This document shows, piece after piece, positions 13,781 to 63,844 of a stretch of 64,000 bases of DNA. Within the stretch, counting starts at the first letter, position 1; the number at the start of each line of letters is the position of its first letter. The position numbers and the translations under genes were made by a program. This DNA is from Candidatus Hydrogenedentota bacterium (GTDB taxonomy: Bacteria > Hydrogenedentota > Hydrogenedentia > Hydrogenedentales > SLHB01): contig BTUX01000001.1 in NCBI GenBank assembly GCA_045863315.1, positions 6,611-70,610 on the forward strand. The letters are read 5' to 3'. Below the pieces are notes generated by a model that worked only from the letters and a program-made list of their open reading frames with translations, did not search any database and was not told where the DNA came from.

Positions 13781-13910
13781 GAACTTCTAACGAAAAAAAT
13801 GAAATACACCAATCCGACTTCGTGGTGCAGGCATCCATGCCTGCATACTCGGCTTGCGGGAGGCAGCCAGGATGGCCGCACCACAATCACTCACATGCTT
13901 TCTCCAGAGC

Positions 13911-13964
13911 ATTTCTCACCAGTCGCCCCCGTCAACGGGGACGACTGGTGAGAAATCCGGGCTA
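13911..13964. repeat. Short copy of palindromic repeat element (21-bp stem hairpin ATTTCTCACCAGTCGCCCCCG/loop/complement, followed by CCGGGCTA)
   Basis: Near-perfect inverted repeat with a 4-nt loop. The same hairpin core recurs at 32647 and 47814. It sits between convergent gene ends. Confidence 0.7.
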
Positions 13965-14054
13965 TACATTTCGGTATGACCTGTCTCGCGGCCTTGACAA
14001 TGTGGCGGATTGTGTCGAAGCTTGTGGCGGTACCTGGTACGTTAGGCGAGTCGA

Positions 14055-15014: not shown

Positions 15015-15454
15015 GAAATATTCCCCGGCGGATTATATGGAAGGTACCGACAACAGACAATGCGCTCAGCCAGCCGAAATATAGGGAACTCGAATTTTGG
15101 AGATATTCACAACTTATCCACAGCTTCGCCCTATTTACCTGACTGCTTTCAATTATGGCTAGAAAAATCGATAAAAATTGAACGGCGACAAACTTCAACA
15201 ACATAACCTATTTACGGATAGATATTTATCCAAAATCGAATACGCTGTAAAAAAGTCCACGCCTACGGATTGCTGGCAAGGGTAGAGGTAATGATAAGCG
15301 ATCGGGTCAATAATGAAGTGAAGTTATCCACAGAGCACTGCAACTAGCCGAAAGAAACGGCACACAATATATTGGGGTCAGTGGAGTCTGGCAATCGTCT
15401 GAAAAATTAGGCATCATCCCATCTATTTGCCCGCATTGAGTCCGGACTGACGCC
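15015..15454. other. AT-rich intergenic segment with DnaA-box cluster (putative oriC part 1)
   Basis: Perfect TTATCCACA at 15114-15122 and 15324-15332. Near boxes ATATTCACA at 15103-15111 and TTATCCAAA at 15226-15234. GC is far below the window average. Confidence 0.5.
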
Positions 15455-16564
15455 CTAGATTCGGATCGGCATAATGACGTTCATATACTGGTGGGACGAC
15501 TTCCCTTCGTAGGGCTTAATGAGGCCCGGACTTGATCCGTCCTTGAGAATGAAACAGAGCTTCTCCGTCTCGATTCGTCGAATTACCTCCAAAATAAAGT
15601 CAGGATTGAACGCGACGTCGATACTTCCCCCCTCGAACTCGACCTGCATTTCCTCTTCGTACTCGCCAACCTCCGGGGTAACGACGTGTAACTTAAGAGA
15701 GGAACCGTTAACCGTAAACCGGACGGAGTTGAATTTGTCGTTGGTCATGGTGCGTGTCCGGCGCACCGCTTCAAGAAAAGCCGCTGTTTCGATGACCGCC
15801 TCTTTATCATGCTTCTTGGGAATAACCATATCGTAATTCGGAAAGTTTCCTTCGATAAGAGCCGTCACCAGCCGCACTGAACCGAACTGGAATGCCGCTT
15901 GAGTCTCATCGAGGTATACCTGTACCTCCCCTTCCTCACCCAATAGCCGTTCAAGTTCATTGATCATCTTTCCCGGAATAATCACCTTAATGTTAAGGTC
16001 CTTGGGTATACCCTCCCGTTCACTGAACAGGCTCATGCGGCGCCCGTCCGTAGCGACAGTCGTCAGCTTCCCATCAACAAGCTCACACAGCAACCCGGTC
16101 AGGTTGTAACGCGCCTGGTCTGTACAGATGGCGAAGCTCGTCTTTTGAAACATCCTCTTCAGCAACCGCTGCCCAAGTAAAATAGGTTCAATGCCTTCAC
16201 ACGACCGCACCGGCGGAAACTCCTCGGCGGACATACTGAAGAGCTTCGTGTGAATCTTCCCTGCCGCTTCAATATTGATGACATTGTTGCCTGACAAATC
16301 CAACGTAACCTCACACTCAGGCAACTCCGAAAGAATAGATGACAATCGTTGAGATGAAACGGTAAGGGAACCTTCCTCATCAACGGTACAATCAGCATTG
16401 CACTCGATACTGACCTTCAGGTCGGTAGCGGTCAGTTTCACGGTGCTGTCCTTTGCCTCCATCAGGATATGAGACAGAATCGGCAATGCGGACTTGGGTG
16501 AGACAACCGTCTTTACCTTGTTCACCGCATCGAGAAGGTCTTGACGGGAAATACGGATTTTCAT
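15455..16564 (-). CDS. dnaN: DNA polymerase III beta subunit (sliding clamp)
   Basis: 369 aa, three-domain clamp. N-terminal MKIRISRQDLLDAVNKV is typical of DnaN. GC is about 51%, lower than neighbouring genes. Confidence 0.9.
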   Translation of the reverse strand: MKIRISRQDLLDAVNKVKTVVSPKSALPILSHILMEAKDSTVKLTATDLKVSIECNADCTVDEEGSLTVSSQRLSSILSELPECEVTLDLSGNNVINIEAAGKIHTKLFSMSAEEFPPVRSCEGIEPILLGQRLLKRMFQKTSFAICTDQARYNLTGLLCELVDGKLTTVATDGRRMSLFSEREGIPKDLNIKVIIPGKMINELERLLGEEGEVQVYLDETQAAFQFGSVRLVTALIEGNFPNYDMVIPKKHDKEAVIETAAFLEAVRRTRTMTNDKFNSVRFTVNGSSLKLHVVTPEVGEYEEEMQVEFEGGSIDVAFNPDFILEVIRRIETEKLCFILKDGSSPGLIKPYEGKSSHQYMNVIMPIRI

Positions 16565-17406
16565 TCGTTAGCTCTCCACCGCCGTAAAATGAATGCAAGT
16601 TATGCTTTATTGCGTAGGTGACTTTTGTATATAAAATAAGTAGTCGTAGTAGTCCTTATCTTGAAACTGTGAATAAGTCTCTAAGTGAAGTAAAAGCGCG
16701 GAGTTCCGTGTTGGATAGGTCTTGAGTACGTTGGTGTGCTTATTCACAGTGTTGTGGAAAGGCTTTGTTTTTCTGGATTCACCGTATGAAATCTGCGTTC
16801 TCCGCTGTGGAAAACAGCCGATCTGTCCACTGCCCGCTAACAGCCAATACACCGCACTATCCCCAAATACTTAACAAGCCCTAGAAACTTTACTTATCCA
16901 CCGTTTCAATCGATACAGTTCTAACGCTCCTATTTTCTAGTATGGGATTTTCGATATTTCAATTCCGTCATGCAAACTACTACTCGGAACAATATATAAT
17001 CTCTCTAGTGAAATATATATAAGGTATTTAAATAAAAGACTTTACAAATCCATTAACTAAATCGCCTAATAATTACGAACGCCGGTCCGAAGTCGTAAAA
17101 TCAAGAAAAACAACTGTCTCTATGTGGTGCCTTATTACGACAAACACCTAGAGTTATCAACACGTTATCCACTCCTGAATCAAGTACAGCGAAGGTTCGG
17201 CGCGAAGGTCGGCGACAGGCAACTGCACCGCTATAAACCCTGTAAATCAAAGGCTATACTTGGACTTGTAATCGTATATTACCGGAACCCCGCATGTCAT
17301 GCTAACAGACGGTTCCACGTAATTGCAAGAGACCCTGACCGGATTCATCAAAAATTCATAACGTATTATTATATATATACTTATGTGTTAAGTGAAAGCC
17401 TAAGTA
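16565..17406. other. AT-rich intergenic segment with DnaA-box-like 9-mers and AT tracts (putative oriC part 2)
   Basis: 9-mers with 0-1 mismatch to TTATCCACA: 16668-16676 (reverse strand), 16740-16748, 16806-16814 (reverse strand), 16894-16902, 17154-17162, 17165-17173. AT-rich tracts near 16990-17040 and 17355-17395 are candidate unwinding elements. Confidence 0.5.
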
Positions 17407-19380: not shown

Positions 19381-19708
19381 GCGTGGGTCCCCTTCCTGGA
19401 TCGATAACGCCACCCAAACACTGCACCGTTTGGAACCGGGCCTCATTATATGAATCGTCGGCGCACCGGTAAAGCACGATCTTTACGACGCAAGGCGCCC
19501 CAATTTGGAGTGCGGGCGTACAGGGCAGTGCGAACGGAGTCGTCTGGTTCCGAGTGCGTGCCGCGCTCGGCGAGCGTACGGATGAGGAATGTTGGGTGTT
19601 TCTCAGCAGACTGTGATGGTTTACCACCGGCGAGTGAAAGGGGTGAGAAATGCGGGCTAACGGTTCGCCGTTTTATTCACTTAACGCACCCTGAAACTCG
19701 GGCGAGGT

Positions 19709-20062: not shown

Positions 20063-20419
20063 GTGCCGGGGCCATGCGCATATCCCAGGTTCGAACGCAT
20101 CACCCGCAAGCGCGACTATCTCGAGGTCTTTGAACAGGGCCAGAAGCGGGTCGGCAGGGCGTTCATTTGTTACGTGGTCCGGCGGGAAGGTCAGGGACGC
20201 AGGTTTGGATTAGCTGTATCGCGCAAGGTTGGCAGCGCCGTCGTTCGCAACCGGGTCAAACGTTATTTGAAAGAGATATACCGCGCGAACCGGTTGCGTC
20301 TCGCGGATGACGCTCGAATCGTCATCGTCGCCCGGCCCGCCGCGGCCAACCTCGATTACCGGCAGTGCGTGAACGCGGTACAGCGGCTCCTCGATGAAGG
20401 AGATGTGCTCCGTGGGTAG
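20063..20419 (+). CDS. rnpA: Ribonuclease P protein component
   Basis: 118 aa, basic, with RNR-like motif region (GLAVSRKVGSAVVRNRVKR). Immediately follows rpmH, as in the canonical arrangement. Confidence 0.85.
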   Translation: MPGPCAYPRFERITRKRDYLEVFEQGQKRVGRAFICYVVRREGQGRRFGLAVSRKVGSAVVRNRVKRYLKEIYRANRLRLADDARIVIVARPAAANLDYRQCVNAVQRLLDEGDVLRG

Positions 20420-20621
20420 TGTTCTGGTTGCGTTCATTCGCGTTTACCAGATCGTGTTGTCTCCTCTGCTCGGGCGGAATTGCCGTTTCCACCCGAGTTG
20501 CTCCCACTATGCCATCGGGGCCATTCAGAAGCATGGCGTATTGCGCGGTATGGTCTATACCGTGCGGCGCATTGCGCGGTGCCATCCGTTCAACGCGGGC
20601 GGCTACGATCCCGTTCCCTAG
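20394..20621 (+). CDS. yidD: Membrane protein insertion efficiency factor YidD
   Basis: 75 aa with YQ..LSPLLG..CRFHPSCSHYA motif characteristic of YidD. Overlaps the rnpA 3' end; alternative starts at ATG 20403 and GTG 20412. Confidence 0.8.
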   Translation: MKEMCSVGSVLVAFIRVYQIVLSPLLGRNCRFHPSCSHYAIGAIQKHGVLRGMVYTVRRIARCHPFNAGGYDPVP

Positions 20622-20743
20622 AACCCGCTCTCCGGCACAGCAGACGCAGCGGCCGAAATGACCAGCCCCACGGCGGAACAGCAACCGCCGGACGGGGCGC
20701 GCGCGGCCCGAACGAACTATCGGGCTCCGAGCAGGAGAGCACG

Positions 20744-22621
20744 GTGTTAGACGACGAACAGGAAAAGCAGCAGGCGCGCAATCAGCTCATTGCGTTCGTG
20801 CTGATGTCGGTTCTCTTGATTGCCTGGCTGCAGTTTCTTCCCAAGCCGCAGCCCGCGCAGCAGCCCCAACCCCTTGTCGGCGAACAGCGGGTGGAAGCCC
20901 CCGTTTCTCCGGTGGACCTCAACGTGGCGGCCGCGCCGGAGGCGGGCGCGGAACCGTCGGGCTGGCCGTATCTTCCGCCCGTTCCTGAGCAGGACAATCC
21001 GGAAGCCGACGAGGTCGTTTTGCGCGATGCGGAAATGGAACTCCTGTTTACGCGCATCGGCGGCAGACTCAAGCGCGCGACGCTCGCGGTCGGCGAACAC
21101 GGCAACGACCGGATTCAGTTGGTTCCCGAGTCGCCCGACTCCCCGGACGTGGAGGCCGTTTACCCCTTTGGCCTGCGGTTCACCAACGAAGCGATTCGAG
21201 ACGAACTCGATCGCCGACGCTTCGACGTGGTCCGCCAGTCTGACCGCGAGGTCGTATTCCGCCTGACCCTGCCCGGCGCGGCGGTAATCACGAAGACCTT
21301 TCAATTGACGGATTCCGCGCACGTGCTGCGCGCCCTCGTCGAGTACAAGAGCCTCGAGGACGCGCCCCGCATCCTGGGTCGTGATCAGGACCCCGCGTAT
21401 ATCCTGAACTGGGGACCCAACGTCGCGTCGCAGGATTTTCAGAAGGGGGTTCGGCAGGCCTTGATCTGGCGGGTGGATGGGAAGAACACCACGCTGGAAA
21501 CCGCGAAAATGGCCGCGGACGAAAACGGCGAGGTGTTCACCCGGCGCATTGTCGGCCCGACATGGATGGGCGTGCGCAGCGCCTATTTCCTCGTGGCGAT
21601 GCGGCCTGAATTCGATGGAGGCGTGGGCTGGGCCCTTGGCGATCCGCACCGGTTCCGGTTCGGCGTGGCGGCACCACGGACCGAAGTGCCCGCGCAAGGT
21701 TCCATCGAGCACTCCTACGAGATTTACCTCGGTCCGATGCAACTGAAGGAACTCAAGGCGGCGTGGCCGACGCTCGATACTTCGCTGCGCTTCTTCTCGT
21801 ATCCCGACTTGATGGACTGGTTCGCGAAGATGCTGCTGCAACTGCTGAACTGGTTCTACGGGATCGTTCCGAATTACGGCGTGGCCATTATTCTGCTCAC
21901 CATTGTCGTCCGCACCGTCATGTTCCCTTTGACCATCAAACAGATTCGAAGCATGAAACGGATGACGCTGCTTGCGCCGGAAATGGAGAAGATCAAGCAG
22001 CAATACGGGGAAGACCCGCAGGAATTCCAGCGCCGGATGATGGAGCTGTACAAAGAACACGGAGTCAATCCCGTCAGCGGATGCCTTCCGCTGTTCCTTC
22101 AGATGCCGGTGTTCATCGCGTTGTACCGCATGTTGTGGAGCGCGTATGAGCTGCGCGGCGCGCCGTTTGCCTTGTGGATCAAGGACTTGTCCGAGCCGGA
22201 CAAGCTGCTGCACATTCCCCCGCTGCACGTGGTGCCCATCTTCGGGCCGTACATTCAATACATCAACGTGTTGCCGTTTCTGGGGGCGCTCGCGATGATC
22301 CTCAGTGTCAAGCTGACCCCGATGCAGAACCCGATCCAGAATCCCCAGCAGAAGATGATGATGACGCTCATGCCGATCGTATTCAGCGTCTTCTGTTATC
22401 CATTGGCGTCGGGACTGAACCTGTACATTCTGGTCAGCACGCTGTTGGGTATCGCGCAAAACTACCTGATTCACGTGAGCGAGGTGGACAAACCCGCCAA
22501 GGTGAAGCCCAGGAAAAGGCAGCACTTTTATACCGCGGCGCTACAGAAGCGCCGCCAAATGGAGCGAGAAGCGCGCGAACGAAAGAAACGCAAGAAGAAA
22601 GTCGACGGCGACGAGGCGTAA
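20744..22621 (+). CDS. yidC: Membrane protein insertase YidC
   Basis: N-terminal TM segment, large periplasmic domain and a conserved C-terminal 5-TM core (..VMFPLTIKQ...MKRM..LAPEM...). Start placed at GTG 20744 after AGGAGA; the track ORF from 20480 would overlap yidD. Confidence 0.8.
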   Translation: MLDDEQEKQQARNQLIAFVLMSVLLIAWLQFLPKPQPAQQPQPLVGEQRVEAPVSPVDLNVAAAPEAGAEPSGWPYLPPVPEQDNPEADEVVLRDAEMELLFTRIGGRLKRATLAVGEHGNDRIQLVPESPDSPDVEAVYPFGLRFTNEAIRDELDRRRFDVVRQSDREVVFRLTLPGAAVITKTFQLTDSAHVLRALVEYKSLEDAPRILGRDQDPAYILNWGPNVASQDFQKGVRQALIWRVDGKNTTLETAKMAADENGEVFTRRIVGPTWMGVRSAYFLVAMRPEFDGGVGWALGDPHRFRFGVAAPRTEVPAQGSIEHSYEIYLGPMQLKELKAAWPTLDTSLRFFSYPDLMDWFAKMLLQLLNWFYGIVPNYGVAIILLTIVVRTVMFPLTIKQIRSMKRMTLLAPEMEKIKQQYGEDPQEFQRRMMELYKEHGVNPVSGCLPLFLQMPVFIALYRMLWSAYELRGAPFALWIKDLSEPDKLLHIPPLHVVPIFGPYIQYINVLPFLGALAMILSVKLTPMQNPIQNPQQKMMMTLMPIVFSVFCYPLASGLNLYILVSTLLGIAQNYLIHVSEVDKPAKVKPRKRQHFYTAALQKRRQMEREARERKKRKKKVDGDEA

Positions 22622-31507: not shown

Positions 31508-31864
31508 GTAGGCGCAGCGGGGCCGCGGCGGTTGCCTTGCATGGTCGGCGGCCTACAGATTCGCCTGGACTCGCTTACGAAGAACATTGAGGCGTTCAGC
31601 AAGAAGTTTCGGGTGGTGAACCCGCAAATGCATTTTCAGCCACCGATACACACCGATGAACACCGATGGCCGAGGGGCCGTGGTCGGTCCGTGTTGGTGT
31701 TTCCGTGGCTCGAGTGGATGGTTCGCGCGGCGCGCAGCGCGGCAGACCGCAGCCCCTCAGAACGCGGGCGGGCTGAACACAGCGCCCGCACAACGGCGCA
31801 CAGCGCGACAGGAGCGCAACCGGACGGAGAGCAACCGGACCGATCACAATTCGACAAAGCACAG

Positions 31865-32276
31865 CGCCCGCCCCCTCTGTCATTCCGAAGCGAAGCGAGG
31901 AATCTGGGTATACCGAGGACCACGTGCCCGCACACGACCGACACTATTACGTGTACATTATGGCCAGCCTATCCAAGGTCCTGTACGTGGGAGTGACGAA
32001 CAACCTTGACCGACGCGTATACGAACACAAGCAAGGCCAAACGCCCGGTTTCACGTCGCGCTACAAAGTCAACCGCCTTGTGTACTTCGAGGTGTTCAAC
32101 GACATCCGGTACGCGATCATGCGCGAGAAACAGATTAAGTCTTGGCGAAGGGAAAGATTGCGTTGATCAAGTCGCAGAACCCCTCCTGGTCCGATCTGTC
32201 GGCGGCAGACGACGGCTGAGTGCCGAAGCAGATTCCTCCTTCGCGAAGCGCGCCGTCGGAATGACAGGCGGGGGCG
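31865..32276 (+). mobile_element. GIY-YIG mini-element: 80-aa GIY-YIG gene bounded by about 45-bp imperfect terminal inverted repeats
   Basis: Left end CGCCCGCCCCCTCTGTCATTCCGAAGCGAAGCGAGGAATCTG (31865-31906). Right end is its inverse complement with a differing central segment (32229-32276). The enclosed ORF is 31924-32166. Confidence 0.4.
31924..32166 (+). CDS. GIY-YIG nuclease family protein (small, UPF0213/YhbQ-like)
   Basis: HYYVYIMAS...LYVGVTNNLDRRVYEHKQG...EKQIKSW matches the GIY-YIG core, including the Arg and Glu. GTG start. Confidence 0.75.
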   Translation: MPAHDRHYYVYIMASLSKVLYVGVTNNLDRRVYEHKQGQTPGFTSRYKVNRLVYFEVFNDIRYAIMREKQIKSWRRERLR

Positions 32277-32398
32277 TTCTTAAGGGTCGGTAAGGCTCGG
32301 TCGTGATACCGCTGCAGTCGAGGACAAAGTCTGATGCGCGAGTATAATCAGATACTGCGCGTCTATCCCGCATGGTGCGCGACTGCCCTCTGCCATAC

Positions 32399-32463
32399 CG
32401 CCCGCCCCTTCTGTCATTCCGACGCGAAGCGAGGAATCCGGGCGAACCGAGAACCCCGTGCCC
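32399..32463 (+). repeat. Solo direct copy of the GIY-YIG element left end (about 88% identical over about 60 bp to 31865-31929)
   Basis: Direct alignment of the two stretches. The downstream frame is degenerate, with no GIY-YIG ORF. Confidence 0.6.
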
Positions 32464-32646
32464 CCTGGCGTTCGGTGTTCGCCTTGTACGCTGTGGTCAT
32501 CGCATCGTTCTATCGTGGCGCTTACGACGGGCGATAGACACGTTCAGCACGAGGTATCGAATCGTGAACCCGTCGTGGCGTACGGCATGGCGCAGCGTGT
32601 TGCGGTCTCCGCCGCCCGTCTTCCGCGACAGGCGGCGCTATCCCGC

Positions 32647-32828
32647 ATTTCTCACCAGTCGCTCCCGATGACGGGAGCGACTGGTGAGAAATGCTCAGGA
32701 GATAGCATAGAAGTCAATCGGGTGAGGATTTTTCACACCAACAGCCCGTTTTCCCTGTGGCTGCATAAAGGTATGTGACGCACGAAGCTGTATCCTTCAT
32801 TGCCCGCGGGTGCGAAAAATCCGGGCTA
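32647..32828. repeat. Long copy of palindromic repeat element (hairpin core + 136-bp insertion + CCGGGCTA)
   Basis: Same 20-bp stem hairpin as 13911. About 95% identical to 47814-47995. Ends immediately at the stop codon of the minus-strand Rieske gene. Confidence 0.75.
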
Positions 32829-33158
32829 TCACTCTTCTTCCACCGGAAGCAACGTGATGTAAATGTCCTCTCCTTCGACTTTCAAGCCGTACCGCCTCAG
32901 CCGGGTGGACTCGTGCGTGAGGCACTCTCCCGTGCGGACGTTGTAGACCCAACCGTGGCGCGGGCAGGTCACGATGTCGCCGTCGAACCGGCCCGTCGTG
33001 AGGTCCCAGTTTTGGTGCTTGCAACTGATTTCCGTGGCAAAAAAGGACCCGTCCGGGTCGCGGAAGACGGCCACGTTTCTCGCTAGCAACTTGAATTTGC
33101 GAAATCGTTGCCCCTCAAAGTCCGAGGTCTTGGCAATCTTGACGTACTGCCGCTCCAT
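32829..33158 (-). CDS. Rieske [2Fe-2S] domain protein
   Basis: 109 aa with CKHQ...CPRHG cluster ligands. The track ORF extends to 33644 but that part overlaps the FHA-GGDEF gene; start placed at ATG 33158 (MERQYV). Confidence 0.7.
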   Translation of the reverse strand: MERQYVKIAKTSDFEGQRFRKFKLLARNVAVFRDPDGSFFATEISCKHQNWDLTTGRFDGDIVTCPRHGWVYNVRTGECLTHESTRLRRYGLKVEGEDIYITLLPVEEE

Positions 33159-46463: not shown

Positions 46464-47854
46464 CAAACACCTTCCGCCAATACTTTCGCTGCCCGGACGA
46501 GTTCGACTGCTTTCGGATCACCACCTCCGCCGCGGCCGACCAGGGCTTTTTCCGCTTCGGAAACGACGCCATATGCTTCGGCCGCGTGGACCACGCGGAA
46601 CAATCCGTTTCGATGCCGGACGCCTTGTGGGATGCGTGTCTCGAATGCCGAATCCGCGGCGGTGTCTGCGATCTGCCGTTCGACCCGGATGAGGTGGCAC
46701 GAAACCTTCGTCATGAGAAATATGTACTTGGGGATACGGCGAGCGTCACATCAGGCGGTATGGCCGGCAAGCTCGTTCGCGGCGCGTACTACGCCGTCCG
46801 GCCCTTGCTGCCCGTCAACGTCCGCAAGCACCTTCAGCGGCGCGCGCTGCGCGGGTGGGACCGCATCCCGTTTCCGCGCTGGCCGGTGGATGTATCGGTC
46901 GACGCACTGATGCAGGAGTTGATGTCGCTCTCGATTCGCGCGAGGGACGGCGACTCGGTCCCGTTCATCTGGTTCTGGCCGGACGGCTATAGGGGAGCGC
47001 TGATCATCACGCATGACGTCGAGACCGCGGCCGGGCGCGACTACTGTTCGACCCTGATGGACGTGACAGCCGCGCGCGGGTTCCGATCGTCGTTCCAGAT
47101 TGTGCCCGAGCGGCGCTACGACGTGCCCGACTCGTACCTCGACGAAATCCGGTCGCGCGGGTTCGAGGTGAACTTGCACGGCTTGTACCACGACGGGCAT
47201 TTGTTCCGAAGCGGACCCGAGTTCAAGGCCCGTGCGACGCAGATCAACGCATACGCGAGGAAGTGGGGGGCGGCGGGGTTTCGTTCGCCGGTGCTGTATC
47301 GCAACGCGGATTGGATGGATGCGCTCGAGTTTGAATATGACCTGACGTTTCCGAATGTGGCGCATTTGGATCCGCAACGCGGGGGGTGCTGCACGGTGAT
47401 GCCGTACTTCCTTGGGCGCATGGTCGAACTGCCGCTCACGACGACGCAAGACTATTCGCTGTTTCACATCCTGCGGACCCATTCGCTCGACCTGTGGAAG
47501 CAGCAAGTGGATCGGATTCTGGCGAACGATGGGCTCGTGTCGATTCTTGTGCACCCCGATTACGTGATCGACGAGAAGCCGAGAGCCGCGTACGCGGCCC
47601 TGCTTGATTATCTTCGCGAGGTGTGCGACGCGCGGCGCGTGTGGGCCGCCCTGCCCCGAGACGCCGCGTCCTGGTGGCGCCGCCGCAACGAGCTTAAACT
47701 GGTCCAGCGCGACGGCTTGTGGAGGGTCGAGGGTGAAGGCGCCGAACGCGCGCGAGTGGCATTCGCGCGAATCAGCGACGACGCCCTGTGCTTTGATGTG
47801 GATGCTAGCCCGCATTTCTCACCAGTCGCTCCCGTTGACGGGAGCGACTGGTGA
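46460..47854 (+). CDS. Polysaccharide deacetylase-like protein (EPS-locus type) with N-terminal extension
   Basis: ITHDVETAAG and NLHGLYHD motifs resemble the NodB-homology catalytic motifs. ATGA overlap with the GT4 gene. The stop codon lies inside the downstream repeat hairpin. Confidence 0.5.
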   Translation: MTNTFRQYFRCPDEFDCFRITTSAAADQGFFRFGNDAICFGRVDHAEQSVSMPDALWDACLECRIRGGVCDLPFDPDEVARNLRHEKYVLGDTASVTSGGMAGKLVRGAYYAVRPLLPVNVRKHLQRRALRGWDRIPFPRWPVDVSVDALMQELMSLSIRARDGDSVPFIWFWPDGYRGALIITHDVETAAGRDYCSTLMDVTAARGFRSSFQIVPERRYDVPDSYLDEIRSRGFEVNLHGLYHDGHLFRSGPEFKARATQINAYARKWGAAGFRSPVLYRNADWMDALEFEYDLTFPNVAHLDPQRGGCCTVMPYFLGRMVELPLTTTQDYSLFHILRTHSLDLWKQQVDRILANDGLVSILVHPDYVIDEKPRAAYAALLDYLREVCDARRVWAALPRDAASWWRRRNELKLVQRDGLWRVEGEGAERARVAFARISDDALCFDVDASPHFSPVAPVDGSDW

Positions 47855-47995
47855 GAAATGCTCAGGAGATAGCAGAGAAGTCAATCGGGTGAGGATTTTT
47901 CACGCCAACAGCCCGTTTTTCCCGTCGCTGCATAAAGGTATGTGCCGCACGAAGCTGTATCCTTCATTGCCCGCGGGTGTGAAAAATCCGGGCTA
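47814..47995. repeat. Long copy of palindromic repeat element (hairpin core + 136-bp insertion + CCGGGCTA)
   Basis: About 95% identical to 32647-32828. Provides the TGA of the upstream deacetylase-like gene and the TAG of the downstream minus-strand methyltransferase. Confidence 0.75.
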
Positions 47996-48691
47996 GGATG
48001 GCTTCCTCGCCGCAATGAGCAGCCACGGACTCTGGCCGATCCATCGGCCGAGGCCCAGCGCGTTTTCAAAAAAGGCGAACAGCGGCACGAGGCGCGAATT
48101 CGAGCTGGCATGGAACGGCATCCAGACGAACCCCTCCATTCGGATCGTGTCGAACCCCGCCGTCCGCAATGCGTTCACGTAGTCGGCCGGGCGGCCCACG
48201 TTGTATTCCACGTTTCTCGATCCGCGCAGCGCCCGCAACGCATAGCGCCAGCTCCGGCCGTTGAGTTCGGTGAACACAAACCATCCGCCCGGCTTCAGGT
48301 GCGAATGAATTTTGCCGAAGAGTTCCTCGAACCGCACCGAAGTGAACGATTGGACCGATTCAATGCCGATCACCGCGTCGAACGGCTGGTCGAAGGATTG
48401 TGTCAGAAAATCGCCGCAAACGGTAGTGACGCCGGGAAGCTTTCGATCGCGCAGAATATTCAGGGCCGCTTCCGAAATGTCCGCGACCGTCACGCTGTGT
48501 CCGCGCTCGGCCAGCGGCGCGGCGAACCGCCCGCTACCGCCGCCTACATCGAGAATCCGCAGCTTCTCCCCGTGGAGGTGTTCAAGGAGAAACGCCAACT
48601 CCTTGCGCGTTTTGTAACGTCCCATGGCGTTCGCGTAGCCCCGCGGATTATTGACATCCCAAAGGTACGCATTCGTTTTCGCTTCTGCCAT
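47993..48691 (-). CDS. Class I SAM-dependent methyltransferase
   Basis: Motif I LDVGGGSGR, acidic motif II VADIS and motif post-I region. 232 aa. Confidence 0.8.
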   Translation of the reverse strand: MAEAKTNAYLWDVNNPRGYANAMGRYKTRKELAFLLEHLHGEKLRILDVGGGSGRFAAPLAERGHSVTVADISEAALNILRDRKLPGVTTVCGDFLTQSFDQPFDAVIGIESVQSFTSVRFEELFGKIHSHLKPGGWFVFTELNGRSWRYALRALRGSRNVEYNVGRPADYVNALRTAGFDTIRMEGFVWMPFHASSNSRLVPLFAFFENALGLGRWIGQSPWLLIAARKPS

Positions 48692-63660: not shown

Positions 63661-63844
63661 TATCGGCACGCGGCGAGGCTCAAGCCGCACGCTATGGAGT
63701 GCGCAATATCGGTCCGCGGCGAGACTCAAGCCGCGCGCTATGGAGTGCGCAATATCGGTCCGCGGCGAGGCTCAAGCCGCACGCTGTGGAGTGCGCAATA
63801 TCGGTCCGCGGCGAGACTTTCACCGCGCGCTGTGGAGTGCGCAA
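63661..63844. repeat. Tandem direct repeat, 4 x 46 bp (TATCGGTCCGCGGCGAG[A/G]CTCAAGCCGC[A/G]CGCT[A/G]TGGAGTGCGCAA)
   Basis: Four head-to-tail copies with 2-5 substitutions each. Each unit contains a GCGGC-N11-GCCGC dyad. Lies 190-375 bp upstream of glyA. Confidence 0.8.

Follow-up and report, generated by a model that had tools for sequence, protein, structure and literature searches.

A long hairpin at convergent gene ends in a Hydrogenedentota bacterium is probably the left-end module of a 184-bp MITE

Within a 64-kb stretch of DNA (64,000 nucleotides, 61% G+C; hereafter the window), a long hairpin recurs at three sites, each lying between two genes that run toward it, and this raises the question of what kind of sequence would be found repeatedly in such a place. 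The initial annotation of the locus offered several readings at once, namely a REP-like element, a bidirectional terminator or stabilizer of mRNA, and a non-autonomous mobile element. The evidence assembled here indicates that the hairpin is very probably the left-end module of a 184-bp MITE and that the host is "Candidatus Hydrogenedentota bacterium AMXMBFR4," with the proteins encoded beside the copies being exact matches to locus tags AMXMBFR4_00110 to _00440.

The three hairpins, designated c1, c2, and c3 in order of position, share a 17-mer, CATTTCTCACCAGTCGC, that occurs on both strands at 13910/13941, 32646/32677, and 47813/47844 and so forms three palindromes. Shuffled sequences gave a mean of 0.19 matches, and none of 100 shuffles reached six, so that the three-copy hairpin that had been annotated is well founded. 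The stems begin at 13911, 32645, and 47812 and extend over 22–24 bp (22 nt at 95% in c1, 24 nt at 100% in c3), closing a loop that varies among TTGA, ATGA, and ACGA. Folded as single strands of DNA, the hairpins reach -22 to -32 kcal/mol, with z-scores of -8 to -12; RNA folding, which had been suggested as a check, gives z-scores of -6.6 to -8.7 for the whole of the element described next.

The hairpin makes up just the first quarter of a longer repeat. Two segments of 192 nt, 32637-32828 and 47804-47995, which comprise the element together with a short duplication of its target, are 95% identical to each other, and the element proper is 184 nt long in both of its complete copies, c2 and c3 (Table 1). 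Its terminal inverted repeats are imperfect (CCCGSATTTYTCAC) and include the pair CCCGCATTTCTCAC / GTGWGAAAAATCCGGG. At the scale of the 192-nt repeat the two ends are likewise mutually inverted (TAGCCCGCATTTCTCAC versus GTGAAAAATCCGGGCTA), with 86% agreement over 21 nt between 47802-47822 and 47979-47999 when the target duplication is counted in, and the 15-mer at the right end recurs inverted at the left end with two or three mismatches. Each element contains two stem-loop modules, A on the left and B on the right, of which A consists of the left terminal repeat and a perfect inverted copy of it, separated by 2–4 nt. Stop codons interrupt five of the six reading frames, the sole open frame having 63 codons. 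Taking under about 500 bp and non-coding as the size criterion for MITEs, every testable attribute of this class is present: the element is small and codes for nothing, its ends are inverted repeats, its target duplication is verified, and its copies are dispersed and polymorphic.

Table 1. Coordinates of element copies, flanking tetranucleotides, and modules in the window
Feature	Position	Strand	Basis or remark
c3, full 184-nt element, CCCGCATTTC...AAAAATCCGGG	47809-47992	+	95% identical to c2; element plus 4 nt absent in contig L020
c3, left target-site duplication CTAG	47805-47808		sequence; empty site in L020 with single CTA(C)
c3, right target-site duplication CTAG	47993-47996		its CTA provides the methyltransferase stop codon TAG
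c3, module A, left-end hairpin	47812-47861	+	24-nt arms, 100% complementary
c3, module B	47893-47989	+	internal GGATTTTTCACGCC (47893-47906) pairs with right terminal repeat GGTGTGAAAAATCC (47976-47989); RNA fold
c2, full 184-nt element	32642-32825	+	hairpin 32645-32694; absent in contigs L026-L028
c2, left target-site duplication CTAT	32638-32641		empty site ggcgCTATcattc, single CTAT
c2, right target-site duplication CTAT	32826-32829		1-nt overlap with the Rieske TGA
c1, inverted partial older copy	13877-13961	-	left terminus, hairpin (13911-13956), and linker
Tetranucleotide CTAT flanking the left terminus of c1	13962-13965		sequence
Unoccupied target CTAA	14042-14045	-	9 nt after the epimerase stop; occupied in contigs L002/L003/L005 (TTAA, then CCCGCATTTC...)
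Decayed remnant (fourth copy)	19598-19661	-	18/18 match to left terminus TAGCCCGCATTTCTCACC; BLAST 100% over 18 nt

This anatomy also accounts for a motif that had been placed directly after the hairpin. At 13911 the hairpin is indeed followed by CCGGGCTA; at the other two sites it is succeeded by GCTCAGGAGATAGC, and CCGGGCTA lies about 130 nt beyond the hairpin, at the right end of the 184-nt element. The motif at 13911 is the reverse complement of the left terminus (TAGCCCGG) because c1 is inverted.

Copy c1 matches positions 3–90 of the element model at 82–83% identity, that is, the first ~90 nt only. The nhmmer match on the minus strand (E=6e-19, positions 3–90) is far stronger than that on the plus strand (4e-10), which covers the palindrome alone, and read on the minus strand c1 opens with TAGCCCGGATTTCTCACC. 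One recognizable end is present; neither a right terminus nor a second copy of the duplication was found for c1. When the remainder of the interval, 13781-13876, was aligned to the body of c2 and c3, 477 of 500 shuffles scored at least equally well, so the two are unrelated. Copy c1 retains module A and the linker, and the position of module B is taken by a different, unrelated stem-loop (13822-13884). This long stem-loop, with arms at 13822-13836 and 13870-13884, is formed by the part of the intergenic region that does not match the element (13781-13884) and is followed on the minus strand by CATTTTTTTCG; it may be either another module or native intergenic sequence. The fourth copy is more decayed still, having lost its hairpin (fold z=0.45) and giving an nhmmer E of 0.09, and lies in a divergent region between the gene for a T2SSE ATPase (start 19446, minus) and rnpA (20063, plus).

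Evidence that the repeat inserts as a unit comes from a related strain, whose orthologs are 84% identical in protein and whose Logan contigs span both loci that hold full copies in the window. Both loci are empty there. The sequences flanking the empty sites align at ~88–90% on both sides, and what is missing is exactly the element together with one copy of the 4-bp repeat, which identifies the repeat as a target-site duplication. At the Rieske locus, the related contigs read ...ggtggcgCTATcattcttcttcc... with a single CTAT, and the window reads ...ggcggcgCTAT-(CCCGC...184 nt...CCGGG)-CTATcactcttcttcc...; at the methyltransferase locus, the related strain reads gtggatACTACgagggcttcc with a single CTA(C), and the window reads gtggatgCTAG-(184 nt)-CTAGgatggcttcc. 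The comparison of orthologous intergenic regions that had been proposed therefore yields precise empty sites for c2 and c3. For c1 no empty site can be defined, because the gene order downstream of the nearest epimerase ortholog (P0011, 79% identity) is different. As read from the two pairs of junctions, the duplication is most likely 4 bp long; it may alternatively be 3 bp (TAK) next to a constant terminal C, both DNA-level pairs having C at -4.

Occupancy also differs among strains that share the window's epimerase protein. In three Logan contigs whose epimerase protein is 100% identical to the window's (L002, L003, and L005), an extra copy follows the epimerase gene 9 nt after its stop, at the junction ...gactcgcTTAA / CCCGCATTTCTCACCGGTCGCTCCCGACGACGGGAGCGACCGGTGAGAAATGCTCAGG. 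Two other contigs, L001 and L004, resemble the window in having an empty CTAA after the epimerase gene and c1 77 nt further on. Derivation of the extra copy from c1 by deletion was considered and rejected: in L005 both linker and stem apex match the c2/c3 type and not the c1 type, so that this copy represents an independent insertion.

Additional copies outside the window were located by translating the element and searching protein collections. Three open reading frames run into such copies, two on other contigs of the MAG AMXMBFR4 (P0001 and P0002) and a third, P0158. The first (AMXMBFR4_01030) reads through the element from its left end, P0158 has the junction TTA-ACC-CGC, and P0002 (AMXMBFR4_13600) enters the element from its right end; a further candidate, P0159, proved to be an unrelated repeat protein. 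The copy in AMXMBFR4_13600 interrupts and truncates a coding sequence, since the ortholog in the related strain (P0008, contig L019) continues for 46 residues past ...GDAAY, the junction lying at gcCTATcc. In this conserved gene of 350 aa, interrupted at CTAT (L019, 3130-3145), the last 46 residues have given way to a tail of 30 residues encoded by the element; AMXMBFR4_13600 is probably a pseudogene, its gene call also lacking the first ~88 residues. Moreover, eight short-read contigs (L001, L004, L006-L008, and L021-L023) end 23–60 nt inside an element end, as is expected of a multi-copy repeat. The element has been recently active, its occupancy differing among strains. Terminal repeats, duplications, two precise empty sites, a polymorphic insertion, and an intragenic copy together bear out the suggestion that it is a non-autonomous mobile element.

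Why such an element should be found between convergent genes is a separate issue. A gene map based on G+C at the third codon position gives 39 junctions in the window, of which 7 are convergent, 6 divergent, and 26 tandem. Copy c1 lies between genes for an ABC ATPase and an epimerase, c2 between a GIY-YIG region and a Rieske gene, and c3 between a gene of 464 aa and a methyltransferase gene, all three pairs convergent; were copies placed at random among junctions, the chance of this would be about (7/39)^3 = 0.006. The description of the hairpins as always convergent thus holds for c1, c2, and c3 and fails for the decayed copy in the divergent region, and the element is absent at four of the window's seven convergent junctions.

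The targets themselves offer part of an explanation. At the eight or so known sites (those of c1–c3, the remnant, the L005 insertion, P0001, P0002, and P0158; two of these came by way of open reading frames, which tilts the sample toward gene ends), the targets are CTAG twice, TTAA twice, TTAG once, and CTAT/ATAG three times. All conform to NTAN with an invariant central TA, and the three of eight that are CTAT/ATAG fall outside strict YTAR. In the window, YTAR occurs at 3.07 per kb in non-coding and 0.95 per kb in coding sequence, each site reading as a stop codon on both strands. In a genome of 61% G+C, a TA-centered target would be about three times denser outside genes and would be supplied by TAA and TAG stops on either strand; insertions between convergent 3' ends would spare promoters and hence persist. 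We infer that the positional bias combines this target preference with tolerance at 3' ends.

Contacts between the copies and stop codons follow the same pattern, since YTAR sites read as stops and are denser outside genes. As the initial annotation stated, such contacts occur at two copies. In c3, the 464-aa gene terminates at a TGA (47852-47854) within the right hairpin arm, and the methyltransferase gene (47993-48691, minus) has its TAG stop (47993-47995) in the duplicated target; in c2, the TGA of the 109-aa Rieske gene (32829-32831, minus) overlaps the duplication by 1 nt. The 464-aa gene, whose ancestral tail is gone, ends 16 codons into the element, and its ortholog in the related strain has 456 aa with another tail, ...TTRASSPQ; there, in L020, the two convergent genes at the methyltransferase locus overlap by 26 nt. 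These effects on neighboring genes, namely the new 16-aa C terminus of the 464-aa protein and the truncation of AMXMBFR4_13600, would be by-products of insertion.

A further feature to be explained is the upkeep of the palindrome. Relative to c2 and c3, the stem of c1 shows one truly compensated pair, T-A to C-G, and one one-sided change, which leaves G.U (G.T in DNA) on the sense strand of the element and C.A on the other; the compensatory change that had been reported for the 13911 copy is therefore real, in a single pair. The L005 copy shows another mirrored change, A-T to G-C at one pair. By simulation, two random stem substitutions compensate each other with probability 0.007, and among four the probability of one or more compensated pairs is 0.044. 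In an alignment of six stems, 92.5% of cells are paired and six pairs are doubly changed, a result equaled by none of 500 shuffles; homology is uncertain for two of the six rows, the remnant and a metagenomic hairpin discussed below. Mirrored changes in independent copies support the view, read from the stem alignments, that the palindrome is maintained, whether by selection, as had been proposed, or by some symmetrizing process.

Selection may act on the hairpin as DNA or as RNA, or the upkeep may reflect arm-to-arm repair within the palindrome. The 23-bp stem, composed of the left repeat and its perfect inverted copy, would be effectively a minimal two-end unit, and the palindrome would be kept for transposition, through recognition of ends or a hairpin in single-stranded DNA, or through arm-to-arm repair. 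A near-perfect 23-bp sub-terminal hairpin with mirrored substitutions is no standard requirement of cut-and-paste DDE transposition. It is conceivable, and on balance unlikely, that the sub-terminal 23-bp palindrome is a functional requirement and not a historical accident, serving either mobilization through a single-stranded DNA hairpin with target duplication or as a beneficial, portable RNA structure for 3' ends. For an element that has terminal inverted repeats and duplicates its target, the former mechanism would be unusual; the latter, if it conferred a selectable benefit, would account for the mirrored substitutions and for the survival of the module in the otherwise reduced c1. The maintained sub-terminal palindrome is the one feature of this element that deserves follow-up.

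A stronger claim for RNA would have the hairpin selected by the host as a bidirectional factor-independent terminator or stabilizer of 3' ends, with mobility merely its means of spreading. The location at 3' ends, with all three hairpin copies in convergent junctions, is consistent with this, as are the great stability of the stem and of the folded RNA (z-scores given above), the conservation of the stem alongside a varied loop, and the one-sided change in c1, which is a G.U wobble on the strand that would be co-transcribed with the epimerase gene. However, the bases directly after the hairpin are GCTCAGG on one strand and GCGGGCTA on the other, with no T/U tract on either; scans for terminators and promoters on both strands returned nothing at the three hairpins. 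Convergent junctions do without a copy in four of seven cases in the window, both full-copy loci are empty in the related strain, where the genes simply overlap, and among the remaining copies one is intragenic and the remnant sits in a divergent promoter region. Nor did an Rfam search with the element give any match at the gathering threshold; matches at an E-value threshold were sub-threshold hits to eukaryotic miRNA precursors and were discarded as generic hairpin matches. With no positive support for termination or stabilization, a host-selected RNA role is quite improbable as the basis of the family. The hairpin may still have a side effect on 3' ends.

Even less probable is an origin of the REP/REPIN type known from Pseudomonas and Escherichia coli, in which a domesticated HUH tyrosine transposase (RAYT) would recognize the palindrome in single-stranded DNA and spread it. 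In common with REPs, the sequence is a strong, palindromic, extragenic repeat with a maintained stem and an enrichment between convergent genes, and the mirrored changes in its stem point to recognition of a hairpin; enrichment of REPs has been described for junctions between convergent and unidirectional open reading frames (PMC3733652). REPs are, however, palindromes of 20–40 bp that bear a GTAG or CGTC tag at one end and are linked to RAYT transposases (PMC3733652). In the present element the palindrome extends over 48–50 nt, with a stem about twice as long as that of a REP, and the tag is absent beside the stem, the flanks being CTAG, CTAT, or TTAA and then CCCG. It is, moreover, embedded in a mobile unit of 184 nt that, according to the empty sites, has terminal inverted repeats and duplicates its target. 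No RAYT-like gene adjoins any copy, the Pfam-scanned neighbors having other functions. The REP-like label in the initial annotation is accordingly withdrawn. Elements of the IS200/IS605 type have sub-terminal hairpins without terminal inverted repeats or target duplication, and HUH transposition of this type is not known to produce such a target duplication; these were excluded as relatives on the same two features. Least credible of all is the proposal that the copies are non-mobile remnants of ancestral intergenic sequence, duplicated by recombination and deleted in the related strain: presence and absence alone give no direction of change and c1 is partial, without a second end, but the absence is exactly that of the element and one 4-bp repeat copy at two unrelated loci, the copies have terminal inverted repeats within unrelated flanks, one copy interrupts a conserved reading frame whose intact form exists, and a new copy is present in strains with an identical neighboring protein.

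If the repeat is a MITE, as the evidence very largely indicates, a DDE transposase encoded by a full-length IS with the same ends, elsewhere in the genome, would move it in trans. Within the 64-kb window, no transposase gene or full-length IS bearing the element ends, and no further termini, were found. By analogy, an IS5-like parent is a reasonable guess from the YTAR-like target and the 4-bp duplication only: IS5 duplicates a 4-bp YTAR target (PMC5009759), and IS711 also uses a YTAR target (PMC2266754). The element resembles bacterial MITEs derived from DDE insertion sequences, those of IS5 type in particular, in being short (184 bp) and non-coding, in having imperfect terminal repeats and a short duplication at a TA-centered tetranucleotide, and in its multiple copies and insertion polymorphism between strains. 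It differs from them in termini that start with CCCG, in the CTAT/ATAG targets at three of eight sites, and in the perfect 23-bp inverted self-copy at one end.

Other families of small repeats provide instructive comparisons. The Correia repeat-enclosed elements of Neisseria, of ~100–150 bp, have terminal inverted repeats, insert at TA-containing sites, often adjoin or overlap gene ends, and are co-transcribed and folded into long hairpins; their duplication is confined to TA, and a single hairpin takes up the entire element. The present element is likewise small, with terminal inverted repeats, TA-containing sites, and contact with gene ends, but it has two separate stem-loop modules, a probable 4-bp duplication, and an unrelated sequence in an unrelated phylum. 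The BIMEs of enterobacteria are arrays of REPs with defined linker motifs, without terminal inverted repeats or target duplication. Their modular make-up is echoed here by c1, which shares module A and the linker and has another second stem-loop; unlike BIMEs, the element has both terminal inverted repeats and a target duplication.

Searches for relatives elsewhere returned little. A scan of viral contigs and BLAST searches of plasmids and phages found nothing similar, and an exact 22-mer scan of metagenome contigs gave no match. A looser hairpin pattern gave ten hits, roughly the number estimated by chance for unrelated hairpins with 11-bp stems, and only one of these shares additional flanking bases. 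That hairpin (L010, positions 441-495; JGI Ga0114923_10267114, from a marine metagenome) has the stem base CCCGCATTCCTCACCAGTCG...CGACTGGTGAGGAATGC in common with module A, but its 12-nt apex differs and one pair has changed in mirrored fashion from T-A to C-G. No other hairpin outside this genome was found to share the extended stem base. The rest of the 1.2-kb contig is without similarity, and the hairpin is possibly related, at a distance, to module A.

Several other features of the window were noted. Near c2, a GIY-YIG nuclease gene (31924-32166, plus; PF01541, E=3e-16) is apparently frameshifted near its 3' end and is bracketed by inverted copies (31871-31888 and 32256-32273) of a second repeat family, GTCATTCCGA(A/C)GCGAAGCGAGGAATC, a third copy of which lies at 32405-32424. 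The contigs that carry the empty Rieske site, L026-L028, all begin inside this second repeat, which is probably multi-copy for that reason, and the GIY-YIG region (31860-32470) is possibly a mobile cassette in its own right. A 46-bp unit near the window's edge is repeated four times in tandem at 63661-63844 (90% match, consensus TATCGGTCCGCGGCGAGACTCAAGCCGCACGCTATGGAGTGCGCAA) without spacers. DnaA-box-like 9-mers number 14 in the window against 4.85 expected, nine of them in 15114-15332 and 16668-17173; these clusters flank dnaN (15455-16564, minus), and rnpA (20063-20419) and yidC (20480-22621) are nearby. The window probably spans the replication origin. Both c1 and the strain-specific TTAA insertion lie ~1 kb from this probable origin.

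The element constitutes an apparently new MITE family, an ordinary kind of element and no new kind of system; in the sequence collections searched, no description of it was found. Its polymorphic copies nevertheless provide evidence of recent transposon activity in the Hydrogenedentota, a phylum for which metagenome bins are almost the only source of knowledge, and its repetition accounts for the fragmenting of short-read assemblies at these loci. Of broader relevance to annotators, a TA-centered target in a G+C-rich genome steers insertions onto stop codons, leaving rewritten C termini, as in AMXMBFR4_00430, and truncated genes, as in AMXMBFR4_13600.
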